The notes beneath the pieces are model-generated. The model was not told where the DNA came from, did not search any database, and saw nothing but the letters and a program-made list of their open reading frames with translations. A DNA stretch of 64,000 nt from a virus. The translations under genes were made by a program, and so were the position numbers. Shown here piece by piece: positions 11,876-58,500 of the stretch; the stretch's first letter is position 1; every line of letters starts with the position of its first letter. The stretch covers positions 10,388-74,387 of the IMG/VR virus record IMGVR_UViG_3300028844_003737; one strand, written 5' to 3'.

Positions 11876-12349
11876 ATGACTAAAGTTACTTTACACGGAA
11901 TACCCGTAATCGATAGAGATTCCTTTCTAACACCCTTTGACAAAATGTTTGATGACATCATAGGAAAATCATTTCCTGAAATCAACAAGCAAGTCGGAGT
12001 AAATCCTTTTCAAGGTACAGCATACCCAAAAGTAAATGTATATGAATTTGATGAAAAGGTAGCCGTAATTGCTGAAATACCTGGTCTTGATAAGAAAGAC
12101 CTAAATGTTGAAGTTGAGGATGGCGTACTTACTATAGCTGGTGAAAAGCATAACGGATTGATTGATGAAGCTAAAGCTAAAGTTCTCAGAAGAGAATTGA
12201 AGCAATCATCTTTCAAACGATCTTTTACCTTGGGTGATCTATTAGATGGGGAAAGTATTACAGCAGACTTCAAAGATGGCATTCTATCCGTAGATATACC
12301 AAAGATAGAGCCCGAACTCCCAAAGAAGAATATTGTCAAAATTAGGTAA
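11876..12349 (+). CDS. small heat shock protein Hsp20/alpha-crystallin
   Basis: PKVNVYE, AEIPGLDKKDL, LTIAGEK, FKRSFTL, ADFKDGILSVDIPK. Confidence 0.95.
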   Translation: MTKVTLHGIPVIDRDSFLTPFDKMFDDIIGKSFPEINKQVGVNPFQGTAYPKVNVYEFDEKVAVIAEIPGLDKKDLNVEVEDGVLTIAGEKHNGLIDEAKAKVLRRELKQSSFKRSFTLGDLLDGESITADFKDGILSVDIPKIEPELPKKNIVKIR

Positions 12350-12539
12350 TAAACTTATTACCTTAGGCAATGACCTGTATATCGTTCTTGGAACGGTATC
12401 GGCATCTTCTGGTTTTACTGGTGAAAAAATTAAAAGTATGTGGAGATTAGCTGATACCGTTCTAAAGAACGGCTCAAATCACGATGAATTATATGTTTGT
12501 CAAAAAATACAAGAAGCTGAATATTTGGACATTAATTAG
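12333..12539 (+). CDS. hypothetical protein
   Basis: ORF overlapping Hsp20 end. Confidence 0.6.
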   Translation: MSKLGNKLITLGNDLYIVLGTVSASSGFTGEKIKSMWRLADTVLKNGSNHDELYVCQKIQEAEYLDIN

Positions 12540-12578
12540 GTTTTACATATTTATTACTAATAAATAGGAGATTACCCG

Positions 12579-13466
12579 ATGTTTGAATCATCAAAATCAT
12601 TTCATAAGTTAGTAGGATTTTCAGCATTAGCAATAGCTGGGAGCGCTGCTTTCTTTTCGGTTTTTGGGTTATCAAAATTATTTGCTGGTGCTCAATTTGC
12701 TGTAGTTATAATGGCTGGTTCATTAGAATTTGGTAAGTTAGTAGCAGCATCGTTTTTATATAGATATTGGGAAAGAATCAATATCATGCATAAAACTTAT
12801 ATGACAATAGCAACCATCATACTCGTACTGATAACATCTGCTGGCATATTTGGATTTTTATCCAATGCTTATCAAGGTGCTACAGTAGGATTTGAAAAGG
12901 AATCTACTGCATTGATATATAAGGAAGATAGGTTAGACCAATTACAAGATGACAAAAAATTTCTGAAAGAGGAATTAGAAGCAGCTGTAAGTGAACTACC
13001 TGAAAACTATCGTACTGCTAAAAGAAAACTAAGAGAAGAGTATCAACCAAAAATAAATCAAATCAATACTGATATGATGAATTTGAAGTCTGATATTGGA
13101 GATTTAAAAATAGCACTAGTAGAAACAGGAGTAGAAGTAGGACCAGCTATTTATTTAGCTAGGGTATTCGACACCGATGTAGATACAGTAGTGAAATTTT
13201 TTATCTTTGTTCTTATCTTTGTTTTTGATCCAATGGCAGTTCTTTTTGTTATTAGTTACAATGTTATTTTAGAAAAAGATAATATTACACCTACACCAAA
13301 AAAGAAAAATAAAAAAAGATGGTGGGAAGTATATGGTGAAAGTGCTAAACAAAAAAAGAAAGAATGGAAAGATAACATAAAATCTACAGTTAGTAACGAT
13401 GAACGATTCGATACAAAACCTAAAGAAGACCCTGTCCAATCAAGACAAGGAAGAAAAATAATATAA
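12579..13466 (+). CDS. membrane protein with coiled coil (phage hypothetical)
   Basis: Three N-terminal TMs, coiled coil, C-terminal TM with IFVFDPMA; RBS AGGAG. Confidence 0.8.
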   Translation: MFESSKSFHKLVGFSALAIAGSAAFFSVFGLSKLFAGAQFAVVIMAGSLEFGKLVAASFLYRYWERINIMHKTYMTIATIILVLITSAGIFGFLSNAYQGATVGFEKESTALIYKEDRLDQLQDDKKFLKEELEAAVSELPENYRTAKRKLREEYQPKINQINTDMMNLKSDIGDLKIALVETGVEVGPAIYLARVFDTDVDTVVKFFIFVLIFVFDPMAVLFVISYNVILEKDNITPTPKKKNKKRWWEVYGESAKQKKKEWKDNIKSTVSNDERFDTKPKEDPVQSRQGRKII

Positions 13467-14503: not shown

Positions 14504-15141
14504 TGTTATCAGAGGACTTTCTGTTGGAAAGAGGGTATTGTTGTGGGCACGGATGTTTGATGTGCCCATACATCCCAAAACATAAAAAGGATAATACAGT
14601 AGTTATGAAAAAAGTTATAGATTGTTATCAAAATGAAAATCCAATAATAAATAAAGAACTCAGAGAAGTATCAGTAAACGAAGGCTTAGAAATTGCTACT
14701 GAACTATTTCAGATACTAAATAAAAGAGGAGATGGTATAGGACTGGCAGCTAATCAAGTTGGTATTGATGCTCAAGTAGCTGTAGTAAATGTTATTGAAC
14801 CATTGATTCTAATCAATCCAAAAATAATTATAAAAGAAAATGAGATACCTTATTACGAAGGATGTTTATCTTTTCCTAAACAAGGTATTCATACTAAAAG
14901 ATATAGAGATATAGTTGTAACCTCCACGCAAACAGACGCTAAGTTAGTATTTGGTGGCTCTGATGATGAGAAGGTAATATTAGAGTCTGTGTGTGTCCAA
15001 CACGAAATAGACCATCTTATGGGTAAAACAATTCATGATAGACAAGTAGATACTACTTATGTTGCTGAAAAGAAACCAGGACGTAACGAACCTTGTCATT
15101 GTGGTTCAGGAAAAAAATATAAAAAATGTTGTATCAGTTAG
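14503..15141 (+). CDS. def: peptide deformylase with N-terminal Cys-rich (DUF5522-like) segment and C-terminal SEC-C motif
   Basis: GIGLAANQVG, EGCLS, QHEIDHL; RGYCCGHGCLMCPY; GRNEPCHCGSGKKYKKCC. Confidence 0.9.
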   Translation: MLSEDFLLERGYCCGHGCLMCPYIPKHKKDNTVVMKKVIDCYQNENPIINKELREVSVNEGLEIATELFQILNKRGDGIGLAANQVGIDAQVAVVNVIEPLILINPKIIIKENEIPYYEGCLSFPKQGIHTKRYRDIVVTSTQTDAKLVFGGSDDEKVILESVCVQHEIDHLMGKTIHDRQVDTTYVAEKKPGRNEPCHCGSGKKYKKCCIS

Positions 15142-15680
15142 AATTATTTGATATAGATAAAAGTGATTTACAAGTAAAGGATGAAGTAAATGTCTATTTA
15201 GATTATTTACAAACGCCAAACGAAGCATTTAGTGGAATGCCAGTATGTCCTTTTCTAAAAGCTGAATTACAAAGTTATAAACTTATGATAGAGGTTTGGA
15301 GACCTGGTGAAAAACCACTAAACGAATTATGGAGAAAGTTCTTCGATTCAGATTTTACTTCAGCAGTATTTATATGTATGGATACAGAAGAACTAAAATG
15401 GAAAGATGTACCAAGAGATTCTTATCAGAAAAGTATACAAGGATTTCTAAAGAATTGGTCTGATGAAAGTAGAAAATATAAAGCAATATTATTTTCACCT
15501 TTTGAAGAAAGAACAGCAGCTGGTGAGTCTACTAGAAAAAAGTCGCCATACTTTCTTATAAATGTAGCTACAAGAGAAGAGTTACATTTATCACATACAA
15601 AATTATTAGACAGTAAATATTTCGATAACTTCTCAGAAGAGGAATTGAAAAAACTAAAAGTCAAAAAGGATAAAAAATGA
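15126..15680 (+). CDS. hypothetical protein (CPF motif, DUF1415-like)
   Basis: PVCPFLKAE...SPYFLINV. Confidence 0.6.
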   Translation: MLYQLELFDIDKSDLQVKDEVNVYLDYLQTPNEAFSGMPVCPFLKAELQSYKLMIEVWRPGEKPLNELWRKFFDSDFTSAVFICMDTEELKWKDVPRDSYQKSIQGFLKNWSDESRKYKAILFSPFEERTAAGESTRKKSPYFLINVATREELHLSHTKLLDSKYFDNFSEEELKKLKVKKDKK

Positions 15681-17494: not shown

Positions 17495-17517
17495 TATATG
17501 TTATGAAAGGGATAAAT

Positions 17518-18030
17518 ATGAAAGATAAAAAAACAATAATATTTGATTTGGATGGGACTCTTGCTGATATCGATATTCGTAGGGATAAATCTCTCAAACC
17601 TAATGGTAAATTAGATTGGAAGATATTTGCTTCACCTACTTCTATTATGGATTGGGATAAACCAAATTTACCAGTAATCAAAATGGCTCAAATGTTCAAA
17701 GCTGATGGATTCAAAATTGTAATCTTCTCAGGTAGAAATGATAGGGCTTTCTATGCTACTAAAGATTGGTTGAAAATTCACAATGTACCATTTGATTTGT
17801 TAGTGATGAGGCCTGATAAGTTCAAAGCTGATTCATGGCCAATTGCTATTGGAAATCCAGCTACTAAAGCTATGAGATTTATGCCTGATGAAATCCTAAA
17901 GAAATCTATGTTAGATACCTTTGTTGATATCAATGATGTTTTTCTTGTCGTTGATGATAGAGATAAGGTTGTGAAGATGTGGAGAGATTTGGGATTGAAT
18001 ACATTTCAAGTTGCTCCTGGTGATTTTTGA
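17518..18030 (+). CDS. HAD phosphatase (stand-alone PNKP/PseT 3'-phosphatase-like domain)
   Basis: FDLDGTLA, FSGR, LVMRP, VDDRDKVVKMWR. Confidence 0.88.
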   Translation: MKDKKTIIFDLDGTLADIDIRRDKSLKPNGKLDWKIFASPTSIMDWDKPNLPVIKMAQMFKADGFKIVIFSGRNDRAFYATKDWLKIHNVPFDLLVMRPDKFKADSWPIAIGNPATKAMRFMPDEILKKSMLDTFVDINDVFLVVDDRDKVVKMWRDLGLNTFQVAPGDF

Positions 18031-18166: not shown

Positions 18167-19117
18167 ATGGTAATGAATATAGGATATGCTTGTATCAACA
18201 TGCAATTGTCGTACCCACAAAAATATGGTGGTCAACCTAAAGGTGTAAAGCCGATAACTACTGGTAGGAGTATGATAAAACGAACATTTCTATCTAAGGG
18301 TGTAGACTATGCTAGTGAACTTACACTAGCCAATGCTATGGACTTAGATAAGATTATGGATTGGAATATACTGAATGGGTACAATTTCTTTCGTATCACA
18401 TCAGGCCTCGCACCTTGGAAGTCTGAGTATGAATGGGATGACTTGAAAGATATTGAAAAGATTAGACAATACTTACACTCTGCTGGCGTGAAAGCTAAAA
18501 CTCATAATATTCGTATCACATCTCATCCAGGTCCTTTCAATGTACTTACATCGCCACATCCGCATGTAGTTGAAAATTGTATTGGTGATTTGACTGACCA
18601 TGCTGCTACATTTGATATGATGGGACTAAGTGAGACGCCATACAACAAAATCAATATTCATATTGGCGGTGCTTATGGAGATAAAGAATCAGCTATGAAG
18701 AGATTCTGTGAAAACTTCAAAATGTTACCAAAATCTGTACAGAGTAGACTAACAGTAGAAAACGATGACAAAGCTAGTATGTATTCAGTTAGGGATTTGT
18801 ATGATGGTGTTTACAAAGTAATTGGTATTCCTATCGTATTTGATTACCACCACCATCAGTTTTGTACAGGCGATTTATCAGAACAACAAGCTTTGGAGTT
18901 GGCTATATCAACTTGGCCTGATGGTATCACACCAGCTACTCACTATTCAGAGAGTAGACGAGATGAACAGAAAGATGAGACTATCAGAGTTCAAGCTCAT
19001 TCAGATTATGTTTTACAAAAAATCAATACTTATGGTAATGAGATTGATGTTATGGTAGAAGCTAAACACAAAGAACTAGCAGTAGAAAAATATAAGGAAT
19101 TACATATGGGGCTGTAG
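18167..19117 (+). CDS. uvsE: UV DNA damage endonuclease
   Basis: IGYACIN, FFRITS, SHPGPF, NIHIGG, RLTVENDD, FDYHHH, HYSES, AHSD, MVEAKHKE. Confidence 0.95.
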   Translation: MVMNIGYACINMQLSYPQKYGGQPKGVKPITTGRSMIKRTFLSKGVDYASELTLANAMDLDKIMDWNILNGYNFFRITSGLAPWKSEYEWDDLKDIEKIRQYLHSAGVKAKTHNIRITSHPGPFNVLTSPHPHVVENCIGDLTDHAATFDMMGLSETPYNKINIHIGGAYGDKESAMKRFCENFKMLPKSVQSRLTVENDDKASMYSVRDLYDGVYKVIGIPIVFDYHHHQFCTGDLSEQQALELAISTWPDGITPATHYSESRRDEQKDETIRVQAHSDYVLQKINTYGNEIDVMVEAKHKELAVEKYKELHMGL

Positions 19118-19180
19118 CTCAGTTGGGAGAGCGCTTCCCTTGCACGGAAGAAGTCGCAGGTTCGATCCCTGTCAGCTCCA
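19108..19180 (+). tRNA. tRNA-Ala(TGC)
   Basis: Full cloverleaf, G3:U70 identity pair, anticodon loop CT-TGC-AC, TTCGATC T-loop; CCA not encoded. Confidence 0.95.
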
Positions 19181-19594: not shown

Positions 19595-19620
19595 TATATA
19601 TAATGAAAGAGGAAAATAAA

Positions 19621-20214
19621 ATGAATAAGAATCAAATCGAAACAGACATCAATTATCATATTTCTATGGTATATGAATTGGCTTCAAATATGGGAGTAAG
19701 TAACCCATTTGATAAATATAAATTTAGAGAACTTCAGGTTGGTTCTATTTTAGGACATGAGGTTTTCGAAGGTGCTTCTAATGGTGGAGACAATGATGAG
19801 ACATTTGGTGCTGATGCTCATGAAGCAGATGGTTCTAAAGCTGAGTATAAGTCTGTAACTTTGGATAAGAAAGAGTTAGATAAGTTCTTAGGTAACAATG
19901 TTCGTGGAACTACTTTGAAAGCAGCTGGTGTCTATAATGGTGCTTACTCTGCTGAAAGTATCAATAGGTATAGAGAATGTAACCACTACTTCTCACTTCA
20001 TTATGGTGGTGATGTTGTCGCTATTGTAAAAGTAGACACAACTTATGTATGTGATACTTTGATGGCTAATAACAATAAGAGAGAAGAAAAGACTATGAAG
20101 TTGATTGCTGAAGGTGCTAAGAAACTTCCAACTACTAATTGTAACTCTGTATCAGTTGAGGTTGTTGATTCAAACCCAATTATAGAGTTTGTCTATGTAA
20201 ATGAGAAATACTAA
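19621..20214 (+). CDS. PvuII-like PD-(D/E)xK restriction endonuclease
   Basis: HI..YELA..MGV.NPF...ELQV..ILG...GADA.EADG...EYKS, then YFSLH-GG-VVAI, parallels R.PvuII as recalled (GNDAVDNAGQEYELKS); catalytic D...ExK present. Confidence 0.65.
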   Translation: MNKNQIETDINYHISMVYELASNMGVSNPFDKYKFRELQVGSILGHEVFEGASNGGDNDETFGADAHEADGSKAEYKSVTLDKKELDKFLGNNVRGTTLKAAGVYNGAYSAESINRYRECNHYFSLHYGGDVVAIVKVDTTYVCDTLMANNNKREEKTMKLIAEGAKKLPTTNCNSVSVEVVDSNPIIEFVYVNEKY

Positions 20215-20256
20215 AAATAAAATTGTATTTCAGGTATTATATAGATATATATTATT

Positions 20257-20328
20257 GCGGGTGAAGTGTTATAGGAAACACACTTCGATACCATCGAAGA
20301 GATGTAGGTTCGACTCCCACCACCCGCT
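20257..20328 (+). tRNA. tRNA-Gly with ACC anticodon
   Basis: Acceptor GCGGGTG/CACCCGC with U73; D stem GTGT/ACAC; anticodon stem CTTCG/CGAAG, loop AT-ACC-AT; 4-nt variable loop; TTCGACT T-loop; one T-stem mismatch. Confidence 0.85.
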
Positions 20329-20390
20329 CAAACTTTCGGCCATCAAAGGCTATTTACTAATTACTAATTGAATATTTATAGGAAAATGTT

Positions 20391-21584
20391 ATGAGTTTCA
20401 CCGACTTTTTTGACGAACCCAAGTTTGACTTCGAAGCTGAACGTAAGAAGTTTATCGATAATTTAGACTATCTAAAGTCTATGTCTGTTCAAGAACAAAC
20501 GCTTTATAAAAAATGGTTAGAGTTCAATGCTGATGTCTATTCTATGACTCAGAAAGCTCCACACTTTTCTAAGATAGAGAAATCTATTTGGACACCAAAA
20601 GATATAAATAATAAAGAACAAACTATCAAAGAGATAGAAGCCTTAGAACCTTATGTTGAGATGACAGAACAAGGTAACACTAAACATAATGAAGAGTGGA
20701 CATTGGTTCGTAGGTTGATTCATACTATGGAATTTACTGCTAATCCTGGCAGAAATGTAAAGTTCTATGTAAAAGATAAAGTAACTAAAAAGATTTTAGG
20801 TATTATATGTTTAGGCTCTGATGTAACATCATTGGGAGCTAGAGATAATTTTATTGGTTGGACAAAAGATAATAAGTTCAAAGATGGTAAATTGAAATAT
20901 ACTTCCATCGGTACTACTATTTGTTGTGCTCAACCATTAGGTTTTAATTTTTTGGGGGGTAAGTTAGTAGCCGCTTTAGTAACTTCATCGGTTGTAAGAG
21001 ACGCTTGGAAGAAACTATACGGGCAGACACTTGTTGGACTATCAACTACATCGCTATACGGAATACATTCTATGTATAACTCTATACCACTTTGGAGAAC
21101 TATGGGTTCTTCTAAAGGTAGGATTGCGCTAAAGCCTGACGATGAGACTTATGATATATGGCACCAGTGGTTGAAGGAAAATAAAGAAGAAGAGTACTTA
21201 GCGGCTACTACACAAAAAGAGGGCGTTGCTGGTCCTCCAACTGGAGTAAAACAAAAGACAATCAATTTGATTTTCAAAGCAGTTGGAATCAAAGCATCTG
21301 AATATCAACACGGATTCAAACGTGGTATTTACTTTGCTGATATCTATGAAAATGGTAAAGAGTTTTTGCGTGGTGAGATAGAAGAAAAAGATTTGAAGAT
21401 GAAGAAAAAGTATGTCGAAGATTCTGATTATATTATGAAGTGGTGGAAACCAAAGGCTATCAAGAGATATAGTAAGTTATTTGATGAAGGTAGACTAAAG
21501 CCAGAAAAACTTTTCTATGGTGATATCGTAGGAACTGAATGGGAAGAAACAAAGAAAAAGTATTTAGGAGAAGTAGGTAGATGA
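20391..21584 (+). CDS. DUF4338 (DruA-like) protein
   Basis: PGRNVKFYV, LGARDNFIGW, QPLGFNFLGGKLVAAL, TTSLYG..SMYN. Confidence 0.8.
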   Translation: MSFTDFFDEPKFDFEAERKKFIDNLDYLKSMSVQEQTLYKKWLEFNADVYSMTQKAPHFSKIEKSIWTPKDINNKEQTIKEIEALEPYVEMTEQGNTKHNEEWTLVRRLIHTMEFTANPGRNVKFYVKDKVTKKILGIICLGSDVTSLGARDNFIGWTKDNKFKDGKLKYTSIGTTICCAQPLGFNFLGGKLVAALVTSSVVRDAWKKLYGQTLVGLSTTSLYGIHSMYNSIPLWRTMGSSKGRIALKPDDETYDIWHQWLKENKEEEYLAATTQKEGVAGPPTGVKQKTINLIFKAVGIKASEYQHGFKRGIYFADIYENGKEFLRGEIEEKDLKMKKKYVEDSDYIMKWWKPKAIKRYSKLFDEGRLKPEKLFYGDIVGTEWEETKKKYLGEVGR

Positions 21585-22372
21585 TATTAGAAAATAAAGA
21601 TTGTTTAGAATTTTTATCAGAGTTAGATACAGAATCAGTAGATTTAGTTCTAACAGACCCACCTTACTTTATAGGTTATGATGGTGGTAAGGGCTGGGAT
21701 TCTGCTTGGGACAGTGAAGAAGAATATTTAGACTGGTGCATGAAGTGGAGTGAAGAATGTGTAAGAGTCTTGAAACCTAGTGGGTGTATGTATGTTTGGG
21801 GTACTACTAAAACCGATACATTTTTGAAATATAAATTAGATATTCTAAACTCTTTTGAAGATATGGTTTACCAAAGTTGGATAATATGGTCTTATGATTG
21901 GGGTGGTAGAACGAAGAAAAACTTTGCTAGAAAGCATGAGGACTTACTTATGTATTCTAAAGGTAAAGAGTTTATGTTCAATAGAGACGATATTAGAATT
22001 CCTTATATTATGAAAAAAAGTGTTCGTAAAGGAACAGAACTAAATCCACTTGGTAAGATACCAACTGATGTTTGGCCTAAAAATAATCATACAACATCAA
22101 AAGAATATGCTGGATGGCATCCAACTCAAAAGCCAGTTGAGTTATTGGAAAGAATTATAAAAGCTCATACAAATCCTCATGATGTAGTATTAGATATATT
22201 CAATGGAAGTGGAAGTACTACTATAGCTTGTGCTAATACTCAAAGAGATTTCTTAGGGTGCGAGTTAGATAAAGAATATTATGATAAGTCTCTGAAGAGA
22301 ATTGATGAGTTGACTGGTATTGGTAAGTTTACAAGTAATAAACTAATTGATATTTTAGGAAAAAGTACTTGA
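21581..22372 (+). CDS. amino (N6-A/N4-C) DNA methyltransferase, beta class
   Basis: Motif IV TDPPY near the N-terminus, HPTQKP, motif I LDIFNGSGST near the C-terminus. Confidence 0.93.
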   Translation: MILENKDCLEFLSELDTESVDLVLTDPPYFIGYDGGKGWDSAWDSEEEYLDWCMKWSEECVRVLKPSGCMYVWGTTKTDTFLKYKLDILNSFEDMVYQSWIIWSYDWGGRTKKNFARKHEDLLMYSKGKEFMFNRDDIRIPYIMKKSVRKGTELNPLGKIPTDVWPKNNHTTSKEYAGWHPTQKPVELLERIIKAHTNPHDVVLDIFNGSGSTTIACANTQRDFLGCELDKEYYDKSLKRIDELTGIGKFTSNKLIDILGKST

Positions 22373-22424: not shown

Positions 22425-24317
22425 ATGAATAACAGAAAACCATTCAATAAACTTTTCAACAATGTTCTATCATCTGCTAAACCACCTGAAGAAAAGGGTT
22501 TGGGTGTAAGAGTAGAAGGTAAGGGTAGAACTGAGGCTAGAGAAGTTTCACTCACACCTCAGATAATTGAGGATATATTCAACGAACAAGATGGAAAGTG
22601 TGCTTTATCAGGAGCTGATTTAGACTTAGATGCTTTGTACATACCTAACAGTCCATTAGCACCATCTATCGATAGGATATCTAATAACTATGGATACCAT
22701 CGTGATAATGTTCATATCGTTCTAAGATTTGTAAATATGGGTCGTGGAAAAAGTGAAGTAAATGAAGCTGTAGCAGCTATAAATTCTATAAAAGCTGCAG
22801 ACTATGAAATTGGGCCTTGGTACTTTCCACCTATACCATACGATGAACTATTCTATAAACCTATAGCTAATTCTCTTGAAGCAGCTCAGTTGGGTTTGAT
22901 AAATATCTTACAAGCACCGATGGGTGCTGGTAAAACTTACACAGCATTCATGCATCTTATTCCTGAACTGATTACTAAAAAGGATGTTGATGTAATATGG
23001 TTCTTTGCTCCAAATTGTGACAACATACCTAAGGATGAGTTCAATGATTATTTGGATGAGTGGTATGGGGATGAACGATTTGAGGGTATGAATCTTAGAA
23101 AGATAAAGATAATAAAAGTTGGTGGTCTTAATGCAAGACCTTGGAGAGAAGCAAAGAAAAAAATTAGAGATGGTTATACAACTATATTTATTTCTACCGA
23201 TGCCACTATAGGTAAAGTGCTCTTAGAAAAAGATACATATGAACCAACTGAAGATTATAAATACTTGAAGTCTTTAGGGCAAAGGTTTGCTTTACTGAGA
23301 GATGAAATACACTATGGTTCTGTATCGGATAAGAAACTATTGAAAAAGGTTATGGGTGGTTCTGAGAACGAAAAGTATAAAGCCAGAATGTACAATGTTA
23401 TGTCTGAGTTTACGGAAGTTACTCCTTGGGTATTTGGGTTTTCAGCAACACCAACATCAGAACAAATAGAAGAAGAAGTTGGAACAAGTAAGTATCAAAT
23501 AATAAATGGTTGGGTTTCTCCAAAAGATTGTATAGCAAATAGTGCTTGGATAGGTAATATCTATCAAACATTAGATTTGAAAAAGTATTGTGATGATAAT
23601 TATATGATGAAGTCTTTGAGGAGACTAATGTCTCGTGTAGAAAGTAGAAGTCTGATTATGGATAAGATGGTAGAATCAAACTCAAAGGACTTTCCAATAC
23701 TAAATAAACTGATAACTAAAACTACTGGTATGATAAAGGTTGATGTTGGAAGTGATAAAGAACATAAAGCATGTTTGTATAGAGTAAAAAAACTTTTAGT
23801 AAAAGCTGGTATTCCAAGTGATTGGACATTCATTGAAACTACTGCAGATGGATGGGTAGAGTATAATTCAAAAGGTAGAGTTGAACAAAAGAATACAGGT
23901 CTTGGATGGTTGAGTGAAATAAATGATCCAAATAGTTCTGCTAGATTACTTGTTGTTGTGAATAAAGGTGATAAAGGTATAAATGTACCTACACTAACAG
24001 ATGGATTGATTTTTAGAAATCCAACACCAAGAGACAAAGAGTTAGGTATTTGGATTGTTAGAAATCCATTACAATTATTAGGTAGATGGGTTCGTAAGAA
24101 TTGGGGTGGTTTATCTTTAGAGGAAATAAATTCTCTATCAAGAGAAATAAGCTATCAAATTTTTTCTCAACTAAACACTTTTGATATTGAGGTACCAGAT
24201 ACACCACAATGGAAACAGACTATCGAAGAGTTTACACATCCAGTAAATGGTTATGCTGTAAGTGCTATAGATATATTAGGTTATGAATTTCAATGGCAAA
24301 GAAAAAAGACTGCATGA
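22425..24317 (+). CDS. HNH-like nuclease domain fused to SF2 (restriction-type) helicase/ATPase
   Basis: N-terminal CALSG...SIDRISNNYGY..DNVHIV...N; helicase motifs QAPMGAGKT, FFAPN, DEIH, SATP, GINVP, QLLGRWVR. Confidence 0.8.
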   Translation: MNNRKPFNKLFNNVLSSAKPPEEKGLGVRVEGKGRTEAREVSLTPQIIEDIFNEQDGKCALSGADLDLDALYIPNSPLAPSIDRISNNYGYHRDNVHIVLRFVNMGRGKSEVNEAVAAINSIKAADYEIGPWYFPPIPYDELFYKPIANSLEAAQLGLINILQAPMGAGKTYTAFMHLIPELITKKDVDVIWFFAPNCDNIPKDEFNDYLDEWYGDERFEGMNLRKIKIIKVGGLNARPWREAKKKIRDGYTTIFISTDATIGKVLLEKDTYEPTEDYKYLKSLGQRFALLRDEIHYGSVSDKKLLKKVMGGSENEKYKARMYNVMSEFTEVTPWVFGFSATPTSEQIEEEVGTSKYQIINGWVSPKDCIANSAWIGNIYQTLDLKKYCDDNYMMKSLRRLMSRVESRSLIMDKMVESNSKDFPILNKLITKTTGMIKVDVGSDKEHKACLYRVKKLLVKAGIPSDWTFIETTADGWVEYNSKGRVEQKNTGLGWLSEINDPNSSARLLVVVNKGDKGINVPTLTDGLIFRNPTPRDKELGIWIVRNPLQLLGRWVRKNWGGLSLEEINSLSREISYQIFSQLNTFDIEVPDTPQWKQTIEEFTHPVNGYAVSAIDILGYEFQWQRKKTA

Positions 24318-49565: not shown

Positions 49566-52500
49566 ATGAGCATTACTAAAAAATACAACAAACCCCACGA
49601 ATTAGATGAATTAGATGTATTGATTGATGATAGAGATAAATCTCAACACATCATCATTACTGATATGCCTGAGAGTCTCCCACAAGGAAAGAGTTCTTTT
49701 CTTATAGAGACAGGTCCTTATATGAAGGATGGTGTAGAAATTCTTATAGACTTCATTGATTCAGAAGGAAACTCAATTTATTCAGAACCTATATCAGAAT
49801 ATCTTGAAGGAACTTCTAGAAGAATAACAGTAGAAATATACGATGATACTGCTCCTGGCGTTGCTAATCTGATAATTGTAGGTGAGTTAGATTCTGTACC
49901 TACTGATCTTGGATTATTTAGTGATGTCGAAGAAGTACCTGATGAGTTCAAAGGTGCTTATAATGTTAGATTGACTCGTGAGGTCATAATAAATTCAGCT
50001 GCTGTAAATACACAGCCTATTAGATTTTGGAATGCTCCTAAAATATCAATAGCTGAAAAAAGATTTGGTACATTAGTTAGAACCGAAACTACTAGCTCTA
50101 TATCAACACCATCGTTTACAATAGAAGGTAGACCAACCGATGGATTTGAATTCAAAGAGATATCACAAAACGAGCCAGCACAAGGTTCAATTGCTGAACA
50201 AGATAAAATATTAGAAGATTTTAAACCAGTAGATAAAACAAGAGAAATTACAAAGCAAAGAAAAAAACTAAAATCAAAAAAAGGAAAACGAAAGTCAAAA
50301 TTTGGTAGACGAATTGGTCAGATTTCTAAAAGAAGCTCTCCTGAAGAATTTCCATATAGCTATAAAAGTGATGGTAAATTTCTAAGTAAACATATAGGCG
50401 GTAAGCTGGTATTTGATAGTATAGATACTAGTATTTATAGTGATGAACAACTAAAAGAATATGGGATTGAAGTTCCATCTCTAACCAACAAGCATACAAG
50501 TTCTTTAGACGAAGTAATAAATTCAAGTACATCACTTGTCTCAAAACCATTTTCAGTACCTGCTGTTGGTAGAGAAAGTAGTGAAATAATCTTACCATTC
50601 AAAGGTACTGCTCATATAGAATTTGAGGCCGAACCAACACAATCTTATAATGTTGCGAACATCATATCTTATGCTGATGTAACATTGAGCAACCTCAGAG
50701 TATTTTCAGGCGATGTATATAAAGCAAAGGTTATGGTTAGAAGTGAGGGTTCTTTTGATGATTTCAAAACTTTAGCAGAAATGCCAGTAGAATCATCTGA
50801 GTTGTTAGTGGATAAAACTTCAATCGGTGAGGGAATAAGAACTGGATATTTTGAGAATATAGCAGACATCACTAATTATTGGGAAAAGTTCGGTGGTACG
50901 AATGGTACACAATCAAGCACATCTGAAGTATTTACATATGATAATGATGTATTATTAGACGCAGTTTATCTTTCAGGAAGCTTAGATACCTTTGGTAATC
51001 AATTAAGGTTTCAACAAAAAAGTGATTATAAATTTAACTTGGTTGCTGGTTTAGATTATACTATATCATTTATTGCTTGTGGTAAAAAGGGTATAAGTAA
51101 TACAGCAACATTGCTTCCCTACATTTCAGGTTCATCATCATACCAAAAGACAAATCAACAATTCATTGATGAGACATCTCAGACTGTATTAGAAGAACCT
51201 GCTCAATATGGTAGAAGGTTGGGAAGCTTGGAAATGAATAGTAGTGATGATACTGAAAAAGATTTTGGTTTAGTAAAACATCAATTTACTGCTGATAAAG
51301 ATGGTGATGCTATTTTACAATTTAGAGTTCTTGATGGTTCTTGGTACATATCTGATGTGTCTATAAAACCATCTCAAGATACTGGATTCTCCCCGTCTCT
51401 ATTTCAGTTCTTACAAGAAATGCCAAAAGAGTATCAACATAAAAGACCCGAAACTTTTGAATTTTTAGTAGAGTTTTATGATGCTAATAATAATATTGCT
51501 GATTCTATTGCATTCAATACCGGCTCTGTATTCGATGGAAGTAATATAGTAATAAGCGGTAACGATAATATTCAAAGTGGTGATATGTTTTTAGGTGGGG
51601 ATACTACTGGAAGTGGTATACATTTTGGAGGAGTGGATTCAAAGCTACCTGAAACAGGCGGAGATGGAGCAGAAGGCTCAGGCTTTATTCGTTCTATAGG
51701 ATATCAAGGATTTACAAGTGCTTCAAATGATTCACTTGGTGGAACTGCTGGATTTATGATTTACAGTGGTTCTGTTTTACCAGATAGTGGAGAAAACTAT
51801 GCTGGTGTTGGTTTAGAATTAGTTGCTAAAAGTGGTTCTTTAAAATTCAGAACGAATCCATCAGTATTTGATGTTAGGGCTGACTCATTTTTCGTAGGAA
51901 AAACTACCACACAATTCCTAAGTGGTTCAGGTGGAAATGTGGAAATAAGTTCGAGTAACTTTCACCTAACGCCTGAAGGTAATGTTACTATGAGTGGTAC
52001 AATTACTGCTGAGGCTGGATTTTTAGGAAACTTTTCAATAGACGATGGCAGAATTAGTGGTAGTAATATTACTATGGATGCTAATAACTCGACTATATTC
52101 AAATCAGACCAAGGTCCAGGTAGTGATTCTTCAGCTGCTTTTCCTGAGTTACGAAACGAATATTATTTAGATTTCTCTCCTACAGTAGAAAATCCTGATA
52201 ACTTTTTTGTAAAATTTGGTCCTAACTTTATGGTTGATAAAGATGGAATTCTTATTGCTAGTGGCGCTCAATTTGAGGGAAGTATAACTGCTAGTAGTGG
52301 AATGATAGGTGGATTTCAAATAAGTAGTGCTTCTTTATTTTCTGATAATTTTTTTATAAGTGGTTCTGCTACTGGTAATGACAAATTTATATCTACAAGT
52401 AATTTTAATGTAAAGGCGAGTGGGGATATTACAGGCTCTAAAGTTCTCTTTACTGGTGGTAAGATTGCTGGATTTGATATTAGTGGAACTAAGTTACAAC

Positions 52501-55500
52501 AAGGAACATCATTCAATTTAGATGGTGCTTCTAGTGCTACATACTTTATATCATCTTCTAATTTTCAAGTTACTCCAAGCGGAGAAGTAAGTGGTTCAGA
52601 GGTTCTTTTTACTGGTGGTAAAATAGGTGGATTTGTAGTAGGCTCCGGCTCACTAAAAAATATTGAAAATTCAATAGAATTAGATAGTGCTTTGCCTGGA
52701 TTTAGAGTAAGAGATGGTGGTGGTACAAGTAGAGTAGAAGTAAAATCTGGTTCATTATCAACTGTTGGTGGTGGCGCACAATATATAGGTAATAAAAGTT
52801 TTGAGGATGATTCCATATCTGCTGGTAGAAATGTAGTAGCAACTGCCACAAGTTGGTCTTTTGCTCTTACTGGAAAGGTTAGTGCTAGTCTAACTGATAG
52901 AAGTGGATTTGCTGATGATGATAAAGCAGTAAGTGGTGACAATACTCTTGATATGGTTGTACCTGCTGGAGCTGCTAGTTATGCTTCGAACAACCAATAT
53001 GAAATAACACAGGTTATAACTTCATCTTTTACAGCTGGCGATGTACTTTCATTTAGTTCTGTTGCTCGTTTTAGTTCATCATTTGGTGGTAGAGGAAAGG
53101 ACAGAGCATTAGGTCCTCAGTATTTTAGATTAGAATATTATAATGGTTCTACATATGTTCCGTTTTTACCACAAGCAAACTTTACTTCTTCAAATGGATT
53201 TGGAGAATACTTTTTAGGTAGTGGACAATACAATAGTTTTGGTGCTAGTGCTGAGTTACCAGCAGATGCCACCTTTGTAAAAGTTAGATTGAGTGGTTCT
53301 ATAAATGATGATACTGGATTTACTATTGAAAAGCCATTGTTTGTCGGTGCTAAAGGAACTGTAGATTCTTCACTTAGTGGGAAAAAATTTAAAAAGACAG
53401 TAAAGGGAAGTGCTACAGCAGAGTTTCCTGAAACAGAACTTACTTGGGATAACTTTTCGGTTCGTAGTAATAGAAGAAGAGTAGAACTTACAGACCAAGG
53501 TTTATTAATTTATAATTCAGAAGATAGTTTCTTCAAAATGGATTCTACTGGTATTGAGTATAGAGGTGGAAGTGGCTTGGCTAGTTTCGGGCAATCTATA
53601 AACAGAGAATCATTTACAAACGATAGTCAAGTTGCGGGTACTCTTGGTGCTCCAGCAATACAGGCATATAACGCAGATCCTGAAGATATAGGAACAGTTG
53701 CTTCAGATGGTAATGTTGGTGACTTCGCTAAGGGAAATCACGTACATAGAATTACTGGAGCAACAATAAATAGTGCTCTAAATGGAACAACACTAAATAA
53801 TTCAATATTTGGTGGAACTTTCAGTAGTACTGTTAGTGGATATATAACTGGTTCTTGGTCATCACAATATTTCAATACATTATCTGCAGCTAGAATTACA
53901 GGCTCATTTACTTCTTTGTCACAATCATTAGCTGCTCGTATTACAACCGAAGAAGCTGAAACAGGAGACATAACGGCGGTTACTGCTGGTGATGGACTTA
54001 CTGGTGGTGGTAGTTCTGGTGATGTTACATTGAATGTCGTTGGTGGAACTGGAATAACTGCTAATGCTAATGAAATAACAACCACAGATAGTGAGATTGT
54101 TCACGATAATCTAAGTGGATTTGTTCCTAACGAACATGTAGATCACTCTTCAGTTTCAATAACTGCTGGTACTGGATTGACTGGTGGTGGAACAATTGCT
54201 TCTACAAGAACATTAGCAGTAGACTTTACAGACTCTACATTGAAATCAAATATTAGTGGTTCACTATCAGCTGAAGCTATAAGAGCATTAGGTGCGGGTA
54301 TCTTATCAGGTTCTGCTGGATCGATGAGTAGTTTCAATATTACAGATGGTTCAACTTCACAAACAATTGCTGATGGTAATAATTTAACATTTGCTGCTGG
54401 AGAAGGAATAGATGTAGCAGTAAGTGCTACGGATACAGTTACATTTTCTGGTGAAGATGCTACTACAAGTAACAAAGGTGTTGCTTCATTTAGTTCTGAT
54501 AACTTTAGTGTATCCAGTGGTGCTGTTACAATAAAAAATGGTGGAGTAGCAAATGTAGAATTAGCAAACGATTCTGTTACTGTTACTGCTGGTGACGGAT
54601 TAAAAACAGGCGGAGAGGTAGATTTAGGAAGTTCGGTAACATTAGATATTGATGTAAGTGATTTTGCTGGAACAGGACTAAAGGATGAAGGTTCTGAAAA
54701 TTTAGGAATAGATTTTTCAGATTCTACATTCAGAACAAATATTAGTGGTTCTTTTACAGCACCAAGTGCTTCATTTAGTACTAGAGTAACTGCTAATAAA
54801 ACAAAATTAGATACTATTGAAACAAATGCTACTGCTGACCAAACTAATGCTGAGATTAGAACTGCTGTTGAAGCTGCTAGTGATTCTAATGTCTTTACTG
54901 ATGCTGACCACACAAAACTAAACGCCATAGAGGCGAGTGCCGATGTTACAGATACAGCAAATGTTACAGCTGCTGGTGCTCTAATGGACTCTGAGCTAAG
55001 TTCTATTGCTGATGTAAAGGCTTTAGACCAATCGGTAGTTAGTGGTGCTTCACCAACATTCGGTACTGCTAATTTTACAGACGCATCAAATAAGAGATTA
55101 ATGACAGATGCTCAAGAAACTAAATTAGACTCAGTTGAAAGTAGTGCTGATGTAACTGATACTGCTAACGTAACTTCAGCTGGTGCTTTAATGGATTCTG
55201 AATTGAGTTCTATTGCTGATGTAAAGGCTTTAGACCAATCAGTAATTAGTGGCGCTTCTCCTACATTTGGTACTGCTAATTTTACAGACGCATCAAACAA
55301 AAGGCTTATGACAGATGCTCAAGAAACCAAATTGGACTCAGTTGAAAGTAATGCTGATGTAACCGATACATCAAATGTTACAAGTGCTGGTGCTCTAATG
55401 GATTCAGAAGTTACAAATTTATCTTTTGTAAAAGGGCTAGCTTCTGGTATTTCTAACGGAAATGTTTTAGTTGCTAATTCTGTAGTAGCTGATAATGATT

Positions 55501-58500
55501 TCTTAAAAATTGATGGAACATCTGTTGAGGGTAGAACAGCTGCCGAAGTAAGAAGTGACTTAGGTATAGAAGCTGGTGCTACTGCTGACCAAAGTAATGC
55601 AGAAATTAGAGCTGCAGTTGAAGCGGCTACTGATTCCAATGTTTTTACGGATGATGACCATACAAAATTAAATGCGATAGAAGCTAGTGCTGATGTAACT
55701 GATACTGCTAATGTAACATCTGCTGGTGCTCTGATGGATTCTGAACTAACATCTATTACTGATGTAAAAGCATTAGACCAATCAGTTGTTAGTGGAGCAA
55801 CACCATCATTTACCACTACTAATTTTACAGACGCTACTAACAAAAGACTGATGACAGACGCTCAAGAAACAAAATTAGATTCAGTTGAGAGTAGTGCTGA
55901 TGTAACAGATACAGCAAACGTAACAGCAGCTGGCGCTCTAATGGATTCTGAAGTTGATGCAGATATAAAAACTTTATCATTACCAGCAAGTACAACAATA
56001 TCAGCTTTTGGTAGAACTCTAATTGACGATGCTGCTGCGAGTAATGCTAGGACTACTTTAGGACTAGGAAGTATATCAACATTGAGTAGCATTGATATTT
56101 CAGCAAATACAAATTTAGCAGCTAGTACAGGTATCACACTTACAGGTGATACACTAACTACAAATGATGGAGAAATAGTTCATGATGATTTAAGTGGCTT
56201 TGTAGCAAATGAACATATAGACCACACAAGCGTAACACTAACTGCTGGTGATGGTTTGACTGGTGGTGGGACAATAGCCTCAAATAGAACTTTTGCCGTT
56301 GGTGCTGGAACTGGTGTTACTGTAAATGCTAATGATATAGCAATCGGTCAGGCAGTTGGAACAGGAAACTCACCGACATTTGCTGGTGGTACATTAGGAA
56401 ATATTAAAGTAGGTGTTACTGGCGATAATGAAATTGATACATCTTCTGGTAACCTTACAATAGATTCTGCTGGTGGAACAATCACAATGGATGATAATGT
56501 TGTTATTTCAGGTAATCTAACTGTATCTGGTACAGAGACAATTATTGATTCTACAACATTAAATGTTGCAGATAGAATTATAGAACTAAATGCTGGTGCT
56601 AACGATGGCGGACTTTTTGTAAAAGAAACAAGTGGTGGCAACGCTACAGGTTCATTACTATACGATGTTAGTGAAAACCGATGGGTTGCTGGTACAGTAG
56701 GAAGTACTACAAATATAGTGGGAACTTCAACAACTGATACACTTACAAACAAAACAATTAATGCGAGTAATAATACTTTATCAAATATAGCAAACTCATC
56801 ACTTTCAAATTCGACTGTAAATTTTGGTGGAATCACTGTAGCATTAGGTGCTTCAGACACAACTCCCGCATTTGATTTACAAGATGCAACAGGACTTCCG
56901 ATAGTTGATGGAACATCTGGTACACTTAGTGTTGCGAGGGGTGGTACAGGTGCTACATCGCTAGATAACTTAATTACCTTATCATCACATACTACTGGAA
57001 ACTATGTAGCAACAATTACTGGTGGTACTGGAATTGATTCCAATGGTGCTACTTCAGGAGAAGGTATAACACATAGCTTATCTTTAGACTTAAATGAATT
57101 AGGTACAGAAACAACTATAGCTCAAGCAGACTTTGTGGCTATGGTAGATGCAACAGACAATGGCTCACAAAAAATAACATTCAGTAATTTTGAAGATGAG
57201 ATATTTGGTAATGTTAGTGGTGATATTTTAATAGCTGCTGGTGGAGCAGCAACCATACAAGCAAATTCTGTTGCTTTAGGTACTGATACAACTGGTAATT
57301 ATGTGGGAACTCTAACTGGTGGAACTGGTATAACATCTACTGGTGCTACTTCAGGAGAAGGTATTGCACATTCAATATCTGTTGATTATGGCTCATCTTC
57401 AGGTACAGCAGTTCAAGGTAATGCTACTGCTACATTTACTGGAACTTCAAATGAAATTACAGTTTCAAATTCTTCTGCTCAAGCATTAGGTGGTAATATT
57501 GCTGTAACAATTGGATTGCCAGATAGCGTCACAATTACAGATAACCTAACAGTAAATGATGATATAACATTTGGTGACGGCGATACTTTAGGTACTAGTA
57601 CTTTCGTATCAGGTATAACTGGTGATGGATTTAGGGTACAAGATAATGGTTCAAATGGAACGCTTTTAGAAGTAGATAATATAGTAGTAAGAAATACACT
57701 AAGAACACATATATTCCAAAAAGATGTTGTCAAAGCAACTAATGGTATACTATTCGTATCAGACAGTGGTGTCGTATCAGGATCTTCTCAAAGTGGTGGT
57801 ACTGTTACATTTGATAATACTAAATCTGCTACTTTTTCTGATGATGATATATTGCTTTTCAAAGATGCGAATGATGCTGGAAATATAAATGCTGTACAAT
57901 TTCAAATAAATGGAAGTAAATCTACAAGTGGAGATTTTGATACATATAATGTTAATAATGTAGTAGGAGATTTAGATAATATAAATGTCGGTGGAACGGT
58001 TGCTAGAATAAATGGTGGTACAGTAACAATTGATGCTTCTTCACCAAACAGCCCTTTTATAGATGTAAACTCCTCAAGTGGTTCTGCTGTAGTGAGAACT
58101 GGTAATCTTGCTGGTGTAAGTTCTACTAGATTTGGTACGCTAAGTGGATTTGGGCTATGGGCTTCAGGTTCTGCTTATTTAGAGGGTGCTATAAATGCTA
58201 CAACTGGTAATATTGGTGGTTGGGGAATCAGTAATACTGCTATTAGTAGTTCAGATAATGGTGCTGGTGGTGTTTCTAATTTTATAATAGATGCTAGTAC
58301 GAAAAGACTTACAATAAATGACGATACTAATGATAGAATCTATATCGGTGAAGTTGATGGTGGAACAACTTACGGAATAAAAATATTTGATAATACTGGC
58401 GGAACATCTCCAGCCGATAGTGATATACTTGTAGAATTAGGCGAGGGTGGAAATACAATTGCTGGATGGACAATATCAACAGCTGCTATAACAAGTCCAT

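Follow-up and report, generated by a model that had tools for sequence, protein, structure and literature searches.

We analysed a stretch of 64,000 nucleotides, here called the window, from a 74,387-base IMG/VR virus record (IMGVR_UViG_3300028844_003737) that is estimated to be ~40% complete and has a GC content of 33.7%. The best cultured matches of its baseplate wedge protein are distant, at 48% amino acid identity in Microcystis phage Mel-JY01 and 41% in Flavobacterium immuto phages, and we therefore describe the source as an uncultured marine myovirus. The window contains a tRNA-Gly gene with the anticodon ACC, which stands directly upstream of a gene for a DruA-like protein. The features of this locus, in window coordinates, are as follows.

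19108..19180, + strand: canonical tRNA-Ala(UGC); the 74-kb record has no tRNA besides this one and tRNA-Gly (ARAGORN, Rfam)
20257..20328, + strand: tRNA-Gly(ACC), 72 nt (ARAGORN, Rfam RF00005, family covariation)
20264..20270, + strand: A8 (20264) and U14 (20270), replacing the near-universal U8/A14 (sequence, family alignment)
20288..20294, + strand: anticodon loop A32 U33 A34 C35 C36 A37 U38, with an A32-U38 pair (sequence, covariation)
20290..20292, + strand: anticodon ACC with A34 at 20290, the sole difference from the L066/L085-type UCC tRNA
20391..21584, + strand: 397-aa DruA-like ORF (PF14236/DUF4338, Pfam), 62 nt downstream of the tRNA-Gly gene

ARAGORN calls tRNA-Gly(acc) at 20257-20329, and the RF00005 cloverleaf of Rfam matches 20257-20328 with 49.9 bits, where the gathering score is 29 and the E value over the window 1.1e-07, which places the gene within the tRNA family. 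The acceptor stem, GCGGGTG/CACCCGC, supplies G1-C72, C2-G71 and G3-C70, and with the discriminator U73 and with C35 and C36 the set of GlyRS identity nucleotides is complete; CCA is not encoded. Much of the tertiary core is canonical, including the GG of the D loop (G18 G19), T54 T55 C56 in a TTCGACT T loop, and an R15-Y48 pair in the form of A15-U48. The variable loop has 4 nt, and the T stem contains a single A-C mismatch that is also present in the UCC tRNA of the L066 type. The reverse-Hoogsteen pair U8-A14 is absent, its positions being occupied by A8 and U14. Each anatomical detail that the preliminary description had read from the letters, namely the glycine identity, A34, the A32-U38 pair and A8/U14, was confirmed by ARAGORN, Rfam and direct reading. 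The A8/U14 core is unusual. In a small sample of phage tRNAs outside the family described below, 40 of 42 have U8/A14, and the two exceptions resemble 5′ start offsets; among nine substitutions scored at 8-14 in yeast SUP4oc, only A8-G14 retained function (PMC4117946). A scan for sigma-70 promoters and terminators around the tRNA-Gly gene gave + strand signals no better than chance.

Several other features of the surroundings deserve mention. The tRNA-Ala(UGC) gene shares its first 10 nt with an ORF for a UvdE UV-damage endonuclease (18167-19117; Pfam, 186 bits). The UvdE ORF is preceded by a 175-aa ORF with a HAD_PNKP phosphatase domain (17503-18030), which stands alone without a kinase domain and lies 2.2 kb upstream of tRNA-Gly. 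Downstream of the DruA-like ORF are a DNA methyltransferase gene (21581-22372) and an endonuclease-helicase ORF (22425-24317). Farther away, a manA RNA motif was detected at 2621-2825 (RF01745, 69.3 bits versus 55.2), in a region with no ORF of at least 150 aa.

A family of phage tRNA-Gly genes

Relatives of the tRNA were sought by two routes, using the downstream 397-aa ORF as a handle and using DNA patterns. Together these define 50 loci with a homologous tRNA, comprising 21 distinct sequences, in a clade of uncultured marine myoviruses, and at all 50 loci a gap of 49-62 nt separates the tRNA from the DruA-like ORF downstream. By blastn, 50,697 GenBank phage records yielded tRNA-Ala look-alikes only and no homologue of tRNA-Gly(ACC), and a pattern scan of genome contigs yielded a single true family member, L161. 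The DNA pattern TTYGATACCATYGAAG is a loose one; among the matches listed for it were 124 new loci, in which ARAGORN found no further Gly(ACC) gene.

Across the 21 distinct sequences, 98.8% of stem cells are paired, as compared with 40-58% in slid controls, and 14 of 24 pairs have changed on both sides, as compared with at most 3 in the controls. Compensatory covariation is strong in all four stems, and this pattern of pairing and two-sided change argues clearly for a cloverleaf maintained by selection rather than a chance match. The glycine identity nucleotides, U33 and A37 are invariant in the family, and none of its members encodes CCA. Positions 32 and 38 covary perfectly, being A-U in 12 sequences and U-A in nine, in agreement with the published view that these two positions retain the potential for a Watson-Crick pair in bacterial tRNA-Gly (PMC7293025). 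A8 is likewise invariant and U14 is found in 20 of 21 sequences, so that the alignment presents the A8/U14 core as a hallmark of the whole family and not a peculiarity of the window gene. The suggestion that this swap looks compensatory holds in part: A8/U14 is fixed as a family trait, but in one sub-group of metagenome contigs (L070, L073, L074 and L080) A8 is combined with A14, and the 8-14 swap is therefore not strictly maintained. The same sub-group has the D loop AAGAGGTA and the T loop TTCGATC.

The complement of RNA genes varies among these phages. In a 165-kb relative that is 79% complete, the family tRNA-Gly is the sole tRNA. In two relatives the family copy is accompanied by a canonical T4-like tRNA-Gly(UCC) with U8/A14 (L013:2497-2568 and L081:1501-1573, the latter in G002). 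Phage tmRNA genes are located 0.5-2 kb upstream of tRNA-Gly in many relatives (RF00023, 74-86 bits versus a cut-off of 47), as at L014:2340-2761, L066:9385-9794 and L094:11817-12225 (- strand), and also in L004, L007, L013, L019, L106, L114, L139 and L161; their tag peptides end in ...PTYAYA(A), and no tmRNA was detected in the window. L161 is a 7.5-kb contig (NHIV01000037.1) with a tmRNA, tRNA-Ala, tRNA-Cys, the family tRNA-Gly and a DruA-like gene, and it is assigned to the bacterial MAG 'bacterium TMED198'. The contig itself is probably of phage origin, and its binning with this MAG could be a weak hint of the host.

Origin and fixation of A34

UCC, the ancestral anticodon of the family, is present in 19 of the 21 distinct sequences and ACC in the remaining two. 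Eight loci (L066, its duplicate L085, L067, L068, L072, L075, L076 and L079) have a tRNA identical to that of the window except for T34, and the window tRNA is thus an L066-type sequence with a single U34-to-A transversion. The flanks of those eight loci are 79-91% identical to the window, and an unchanged tRNA body between flanks with as little as ~79% identity shows purifying selection on the body.

The preliminary description had allowed that A at 20290 could be a sequencing error or a singleton among relatives with GCC or TCC, and had named read support at this position as a check. As for relatives, 19 of 21 sequences do carry TCC, and T is the base at position 34 in each of the 15 other contigs with a match to the anticodon arm, the one observation that would favour an error. 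The remainder of that proposal is refuted by the reproducibility of the allele. A 2-kb stretch of the window recurs almost word for word in 17 public runs from about ten studies dated 2014-2025, with no RNA run among them. Contigs from four independent studies (X6, 2014; X8, 2022; X9, 2025; X10, 2017), each spanning at least 19600-20320, have A at 20290 and zero differences from the window, at word depths of 10-23; none of the four is flagged as a possible source of the record. X8 contains in addition another contig, which belongs to a relative and has T at this position, and the X6 and X10 runs include contigs of 121-128 kb. With ACC also present independently in a second phage, L094, we regard the chance of a sequencing or assembly error as negligible, and the ACC allele is fixed in a widely distributed phage population.

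L094 is a different IMG/VR contig with the same synteny, and the cloverleaf of its tRNA is intact (Rfam, 47.1 bits). The bodies of the L094 and window tRNAs differ at 7 positions, which fall on both sides of the anticodon arm. In a maximum-likelihood tree built on the neighbouring 397-aa DruA-like ORF, the window groups with TCC-bearing L069, L003 and L071 (support 100/98) and L094 with TCC-bearing L013 (100/99). A single ACC clade occurs in 0% of bootstrap trees and is rejected by the AU test with p=0.00034, the clade for this test having been named after inspection of the tree. On these two results a single origin of ACC is rejected, and U34-to-A34 appears to have arisen twice, separately, in related phages. 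The relationships of tRNA and flanks disagree, making phage mosaicism evident, and a transfer of ACC by a very short gene-conversion patch, of at most 22 nt, is conceivable. Whether by mutation or by conversion, comparison of the loci places the ACC allele on two diverged backgrounds.

Probable decoding and possible glycyl donation

The rarity that the preliminary description attributed to Gly(ACC) is borne out by the literature: A34 has never been observed for Gly in the three kingdoms (PMC7293025), A34 tRNA-Gly is said to be "banished" from nearly all organisms (PMC6720975), and we found no paper recording Gly(ACC) in phages. The causes proposed for its absence from cellular life are poor deamination, loop distortion and frameshifting. 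[quoted passage not shown] In the UCC-to-ACC mutant of tRNA-Gly1, which has an unmodified A34, third-base discrimination among GGN codons is lost, whereas unmodified UCC with U32 reads GGA and GGG only (PMC6103715). On GGU, the activity of ACC is close to that of GCC, and frameshifting is slightly more frequent (PMC6720975).

For the phage tRNA, editing of A34 seems improbable. A search for PF00383 deaminases gave nothing in five phage records, all of them fragments. Bacterial TadA is specific for tRNA-Arg(ACG), and the phage anticodon loop departs from the U33-A34-C35-G36 of a TadA substrate in having C and not G at position 36. Since no deaminase was found and TadA substrates have G36, A34 most likely stays unmodified.

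The reading that we favour, with a probability of about 0.5, is that the gene encodes a working phage tRNA that can be charged by GlyRS and, with an unmodified A34, reads GGU and probably other GGN codons. The lineage started from a UCC ancestor with the family hallmarks A8/U14, A15-U48, a 4-nt variable loop, the 32-38 pair and the lack of an encoded CCA, and one U34-to-A transversion then gave the ACC form that became fixed in a widely distributed population. Under this model, the host would add CCA, and charging by the host GlyRS is to be expected because every identity element of bacterial GlyRS is preserved and none of them is at position 34. A34, left unmodified, would pair with U3 of GGU, the commonest Gly codon of the phage, and other GGN codons would be read with little discrimination, as by the E. 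coli UCC-to-ACC mutant. The reach of the tRNA would thereby grow to most, if not all, Gly codons, as against the 39% that are GGA or GGG. Since all four GGN codons specify glycine, ACC should carry no fidelity cost, and this, together with the wider reach, would explain how the allele could become fixed, and do so twice. The invariance of U33 and A37, the conservation of U34 in the family, the canonical elbow and the purine at position 37 are our reasons for preferring a decoding function.

Codon usage agrees with this model only to a degree. GGT was described beforehand as the dominant Gly codon, and it is indeed the most frequent in the 74-kb record, at 53%, although GGA accounts for 35%. 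In a giant 3598-aa ORF (49566-60362) with 11.5% glycine, the counts are 235 GGT, 133 GGA, 36 GGC and 11 GGG, so that GGT reaches 57%. The further proposal that the tRNA is tuned to GGT is not supported as an adaptation of this lineage. GGT shares range from 44 to 75% in UCC-bearing relatives and stand at 51-53%, the low end, in the two ACC phages; the same or higher use of GGT by UCC relatives implies that the anticodon switch does not track codon demand, and it counts against the decoder model itself. Also against that model are the small number of family sequences with A34, which makes UCC clearly the favoured state, the T-stem A-C mismatch at a pair that tunes EF-Tu affinity, which together with A8/U14 could mean weaker ribosomal use, the loop distortion suggested by molecular dynamics (PMC4928997), and a gene context that offers a role in which the anticodon is irrelevant.

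That context is provided by GNAT proteins. The AF2 model of the DruA-like ORF (pLDDT 85, pTM 0.81) is predicted to adopt a GNAT fold: its strongest Foldseek matches are GNATs, with probabilities of at least 0.9, and the first is Mom of phage Mu (8bv8; E 2e-3, probability 1.00). VIA-align gave Z 11.4 over 185 residues for Mom and Z 9-10.1 for other GNATs. Mu Mom is a GNAT that uses Gly-tRNA-Gly of any isoacceptor to produce N6-carbamoylmethyl-adenine in DNA (PMC13219725). Mom leads the other GNATs by a small margin, and sequence homology is lacking, with no relation between the DruA-like and Mom paralogue alignments in hhalign (probability 0.5%), and we therefore take the modelled protein to be a GNAT of Mom-like shape but not a member of the Mom family. 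Assignment to that family (PF25680) was considered and rejected, as Pfam returns only DruA, PF14236, and hhalign gives the low probability just cited. The DruA/DUF4338 domain is otherwise familiar from Druantia defence.

True Mom genes do occur in related phages. With the Mu Mom protein and Pfam PF25680 (cut-off 27.1 bits) as queries, Mom-family genes scoring 146-156 bits were found three times in G001, three times in G002, twice in G007 and once in G013, which lacks the tRNA. The positions (PF25680) in the first three records are as follows.

G001: Mom genes at 129753-130421, 132179-132778 and 163314-163979
G002: Mom genes at 11913-12584, 15042-15641 and 49672-50337
G007: Mom genes at 85080-85679 and 87361-88032

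The same search found no Mom gene in G000, G003, G006 and G008, whose records miss the syntenic Mom region. No Mom gene falls within the record of the window. By synteny the record begins at a point equivalent to ~64 kb of G002, whose Mom genes are at 12, 15 and 50 kb, so that the Mom region is off the contig. Two to three paralogues per relative suggest several DNA modification specificities that depend on glycyl-tRNA.

The main rival to the decoder model is accordingly one in which the family tRNA supplies or buffers Gly-tRNA-Gly for Mom-type GNATs that hypermodify phage DNA, with translation secondary or lost. The neighbouring DruA-like protein, if its modelled fold is correct, may belong among these enzymes. 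Position 34 is ignored by GlyRS and by Mom alike, and with the anticodon relaxed, U34-to-A34 would be nearly neutral. The possibility of a non-translational role, raised in the preliminary description, thus gains contextual support from the Mom-like neighbour, which has Mu Mom as its top match in two aligners, and from the Mom paralogues of relatives. It gains also from the fixed spacing of tRNA and DruA-like ORF, from the acceptance by Mom of any isoacceptor (PMC13219725), and from the location of the T-stem mismatches, at pairs by which non-proteinogenic tRNA-Gly have their affinity for EF-Tu tuned (PMC6103715). Glycyl donation accounts for three things that decoding does not, namely the retention of a lone Gly tRNA, as in the 165-kb relative, its link to a Mom-like GNAT, and the changeability of position 34; and the two relatives with an extra canonical tRNA-Gly(UCC) suggest that the A8/U14 copy is not simply redundant. 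On the other hand, the window's own record has no Mom gene, its syntenic region being off the contig, DruA-like and Mom genes are also present in relatives without the tRNA, and the two proteins share no homology at the sequence level. U34 in 19 of 21 sequences, with U33 and A37 invariant, indicates a decoding constraint, and G18 G19, the TTC of the T loop and the purine at 37 are canonical, unlike those of known non-proteinogenic tRNA-Gly. We hold this alternative tentatively, as a possibility that is the less probable of the two; the readings are compatible, not mutually exclusive.

Two further accounts dispense with any benefit in translation or DNA modification. A34 might be a neutral or slightly deleterious loss-of-function variant, working no better or not at all, in a tRNA that the phage can do without, and might have become fixed by drift or hitch-hiking, in line with its rarity in the family, the unchanged codon usage, the lack of the tRNA from many relatives of the wider group, and an AT-rich genome in which mutation is biased toward A or T. 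Such a variant would not be expected to sit in a tRNA with no other change between flanks that have diverged by 9-21% from those of the nearest relatives, nor to persist in samples of about ten studies over 2014-2025, nor to appear independently as the same base change in L094 with its cloverleaf intact, and we judge drift to be rather unlikely. Alternatively, A34 could be an escape from a host anticodon nuclease, or from some other defence directed at tRNAs, for which the UCC loop is the recognition site. Changes in the anticodon loop are an established means by which phage tRNAs escape such nucleases (PMC10264068, PMC11555353), and the HAD_PNKP phosphatase-like ORF is nearby; but the published cases of evasion leave the anticodon unchanged (PMC10264068), whereas A34 alters decoding. 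Most relatives retain UCC. A search for RNA ligases (PF09511, PF09414) gave nothing in the record and in four relatives, all of them fragments, and PF09511 was silent in control genomes too. We know of no Gly-specific anticodon nuclease. The earlier proposal of nuclease evasion thus found nothing in its support, and we consider it very improbable.

The natural one-base UCC/ACC pair, set in an otherwise identical tRNA, amounts to a clean natural experiment on A34 in tRNA-Gly. To earlier reports on this anticodon the present analysis adds that pair, the proof of the allele from independent assemblies and the evidence for two origins within one family, as well as a family-wide departure from the near-universal U8-A14 and a conserved link to a Mom-like GNAT. 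The pairing of tRNA and Mom-like GNAT offers a lead on why phages keep a lone Gly tRNA and on the biochemistry of DruA. More speculatively, the whole A8/U14 tRNA-Gly family could serve Mom-type or DruA-like GNATs that hypermodify DNA as a glycyl carrier private to the phage; we think this unlikely, but if it were true, the repeated U34-to-A34 change would mark an anticodon released from translational constraint, and the DruA (DUF4338) domain would be an aminoacyl-tRNA-dependent transferase.

Comparison with known systems

The closest counterpart of the phage tRNA-Gly(ACC) is the UCC-to-ACC mutant of E. coli tRNA-Gly1 (Boren et al. 1993, as cited in PMC6103715 and PMC4928997), which has the same U34-to-A34 change. 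As summarised in the citing papers, the mutant is chargeable and active in elongation and reads GGN codons without third-base discrimination. It was made in the laboratory, whereas the phage tRNA is natural, is fixed in a wild population and appears to have arisen twice. An unmodified A34 in a four-codon box, as is probable for the phage tRNA, is also found in Mycoplasma tRNA-Thr(AGU) and yeast mitochondrial tRNA-Arg(ACG) (PMC6103715), but these serve other amino acids and belong to reduced cellular or organellar genomes, not to phages.

Among phage tRNAs, the tRNA-Gly(UCC) of T4 type, represented here by the L013 and L081 copies, has the same set of Gly identity nucleotides, the ancestral anticodon UCC, a compact length of 72-73 nt and a short variable loop. 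These canonical copies have U8/A14 and a D loop of the TAATGGT type, whereas the family has A8/U14 and the D loop TATAGGAA, its window member having A34 in addition. The non-proteinogenic tRNA-Gly(UCC) of Staphylococcus, which functions in cell-wall synthesis, is a precedent for a glycyl donor outside translation, and T-stem pairs are possibly weakened in both. The staphylococcal type has lost G18 G19 and the T-Psi-C loop and has a pyrimidine at 37, while the phage tRNA keeps G18 G19, TTC and A37 and so falls outside that class. For the neighbouring gene, Mom of phage Mu (PDB 8bv8, PMC13219725) is the nearest known system, being a phage GNAT that uses glycyl-tRNA and the best structural match of the DruA-like protein. 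Mu has no tRNA of its own, whereas the phages described here carry the tRNA directly upstream of a DUF4338/DruA-like gene whose product is a putative GNAT without detectable sequence homology to Mom.
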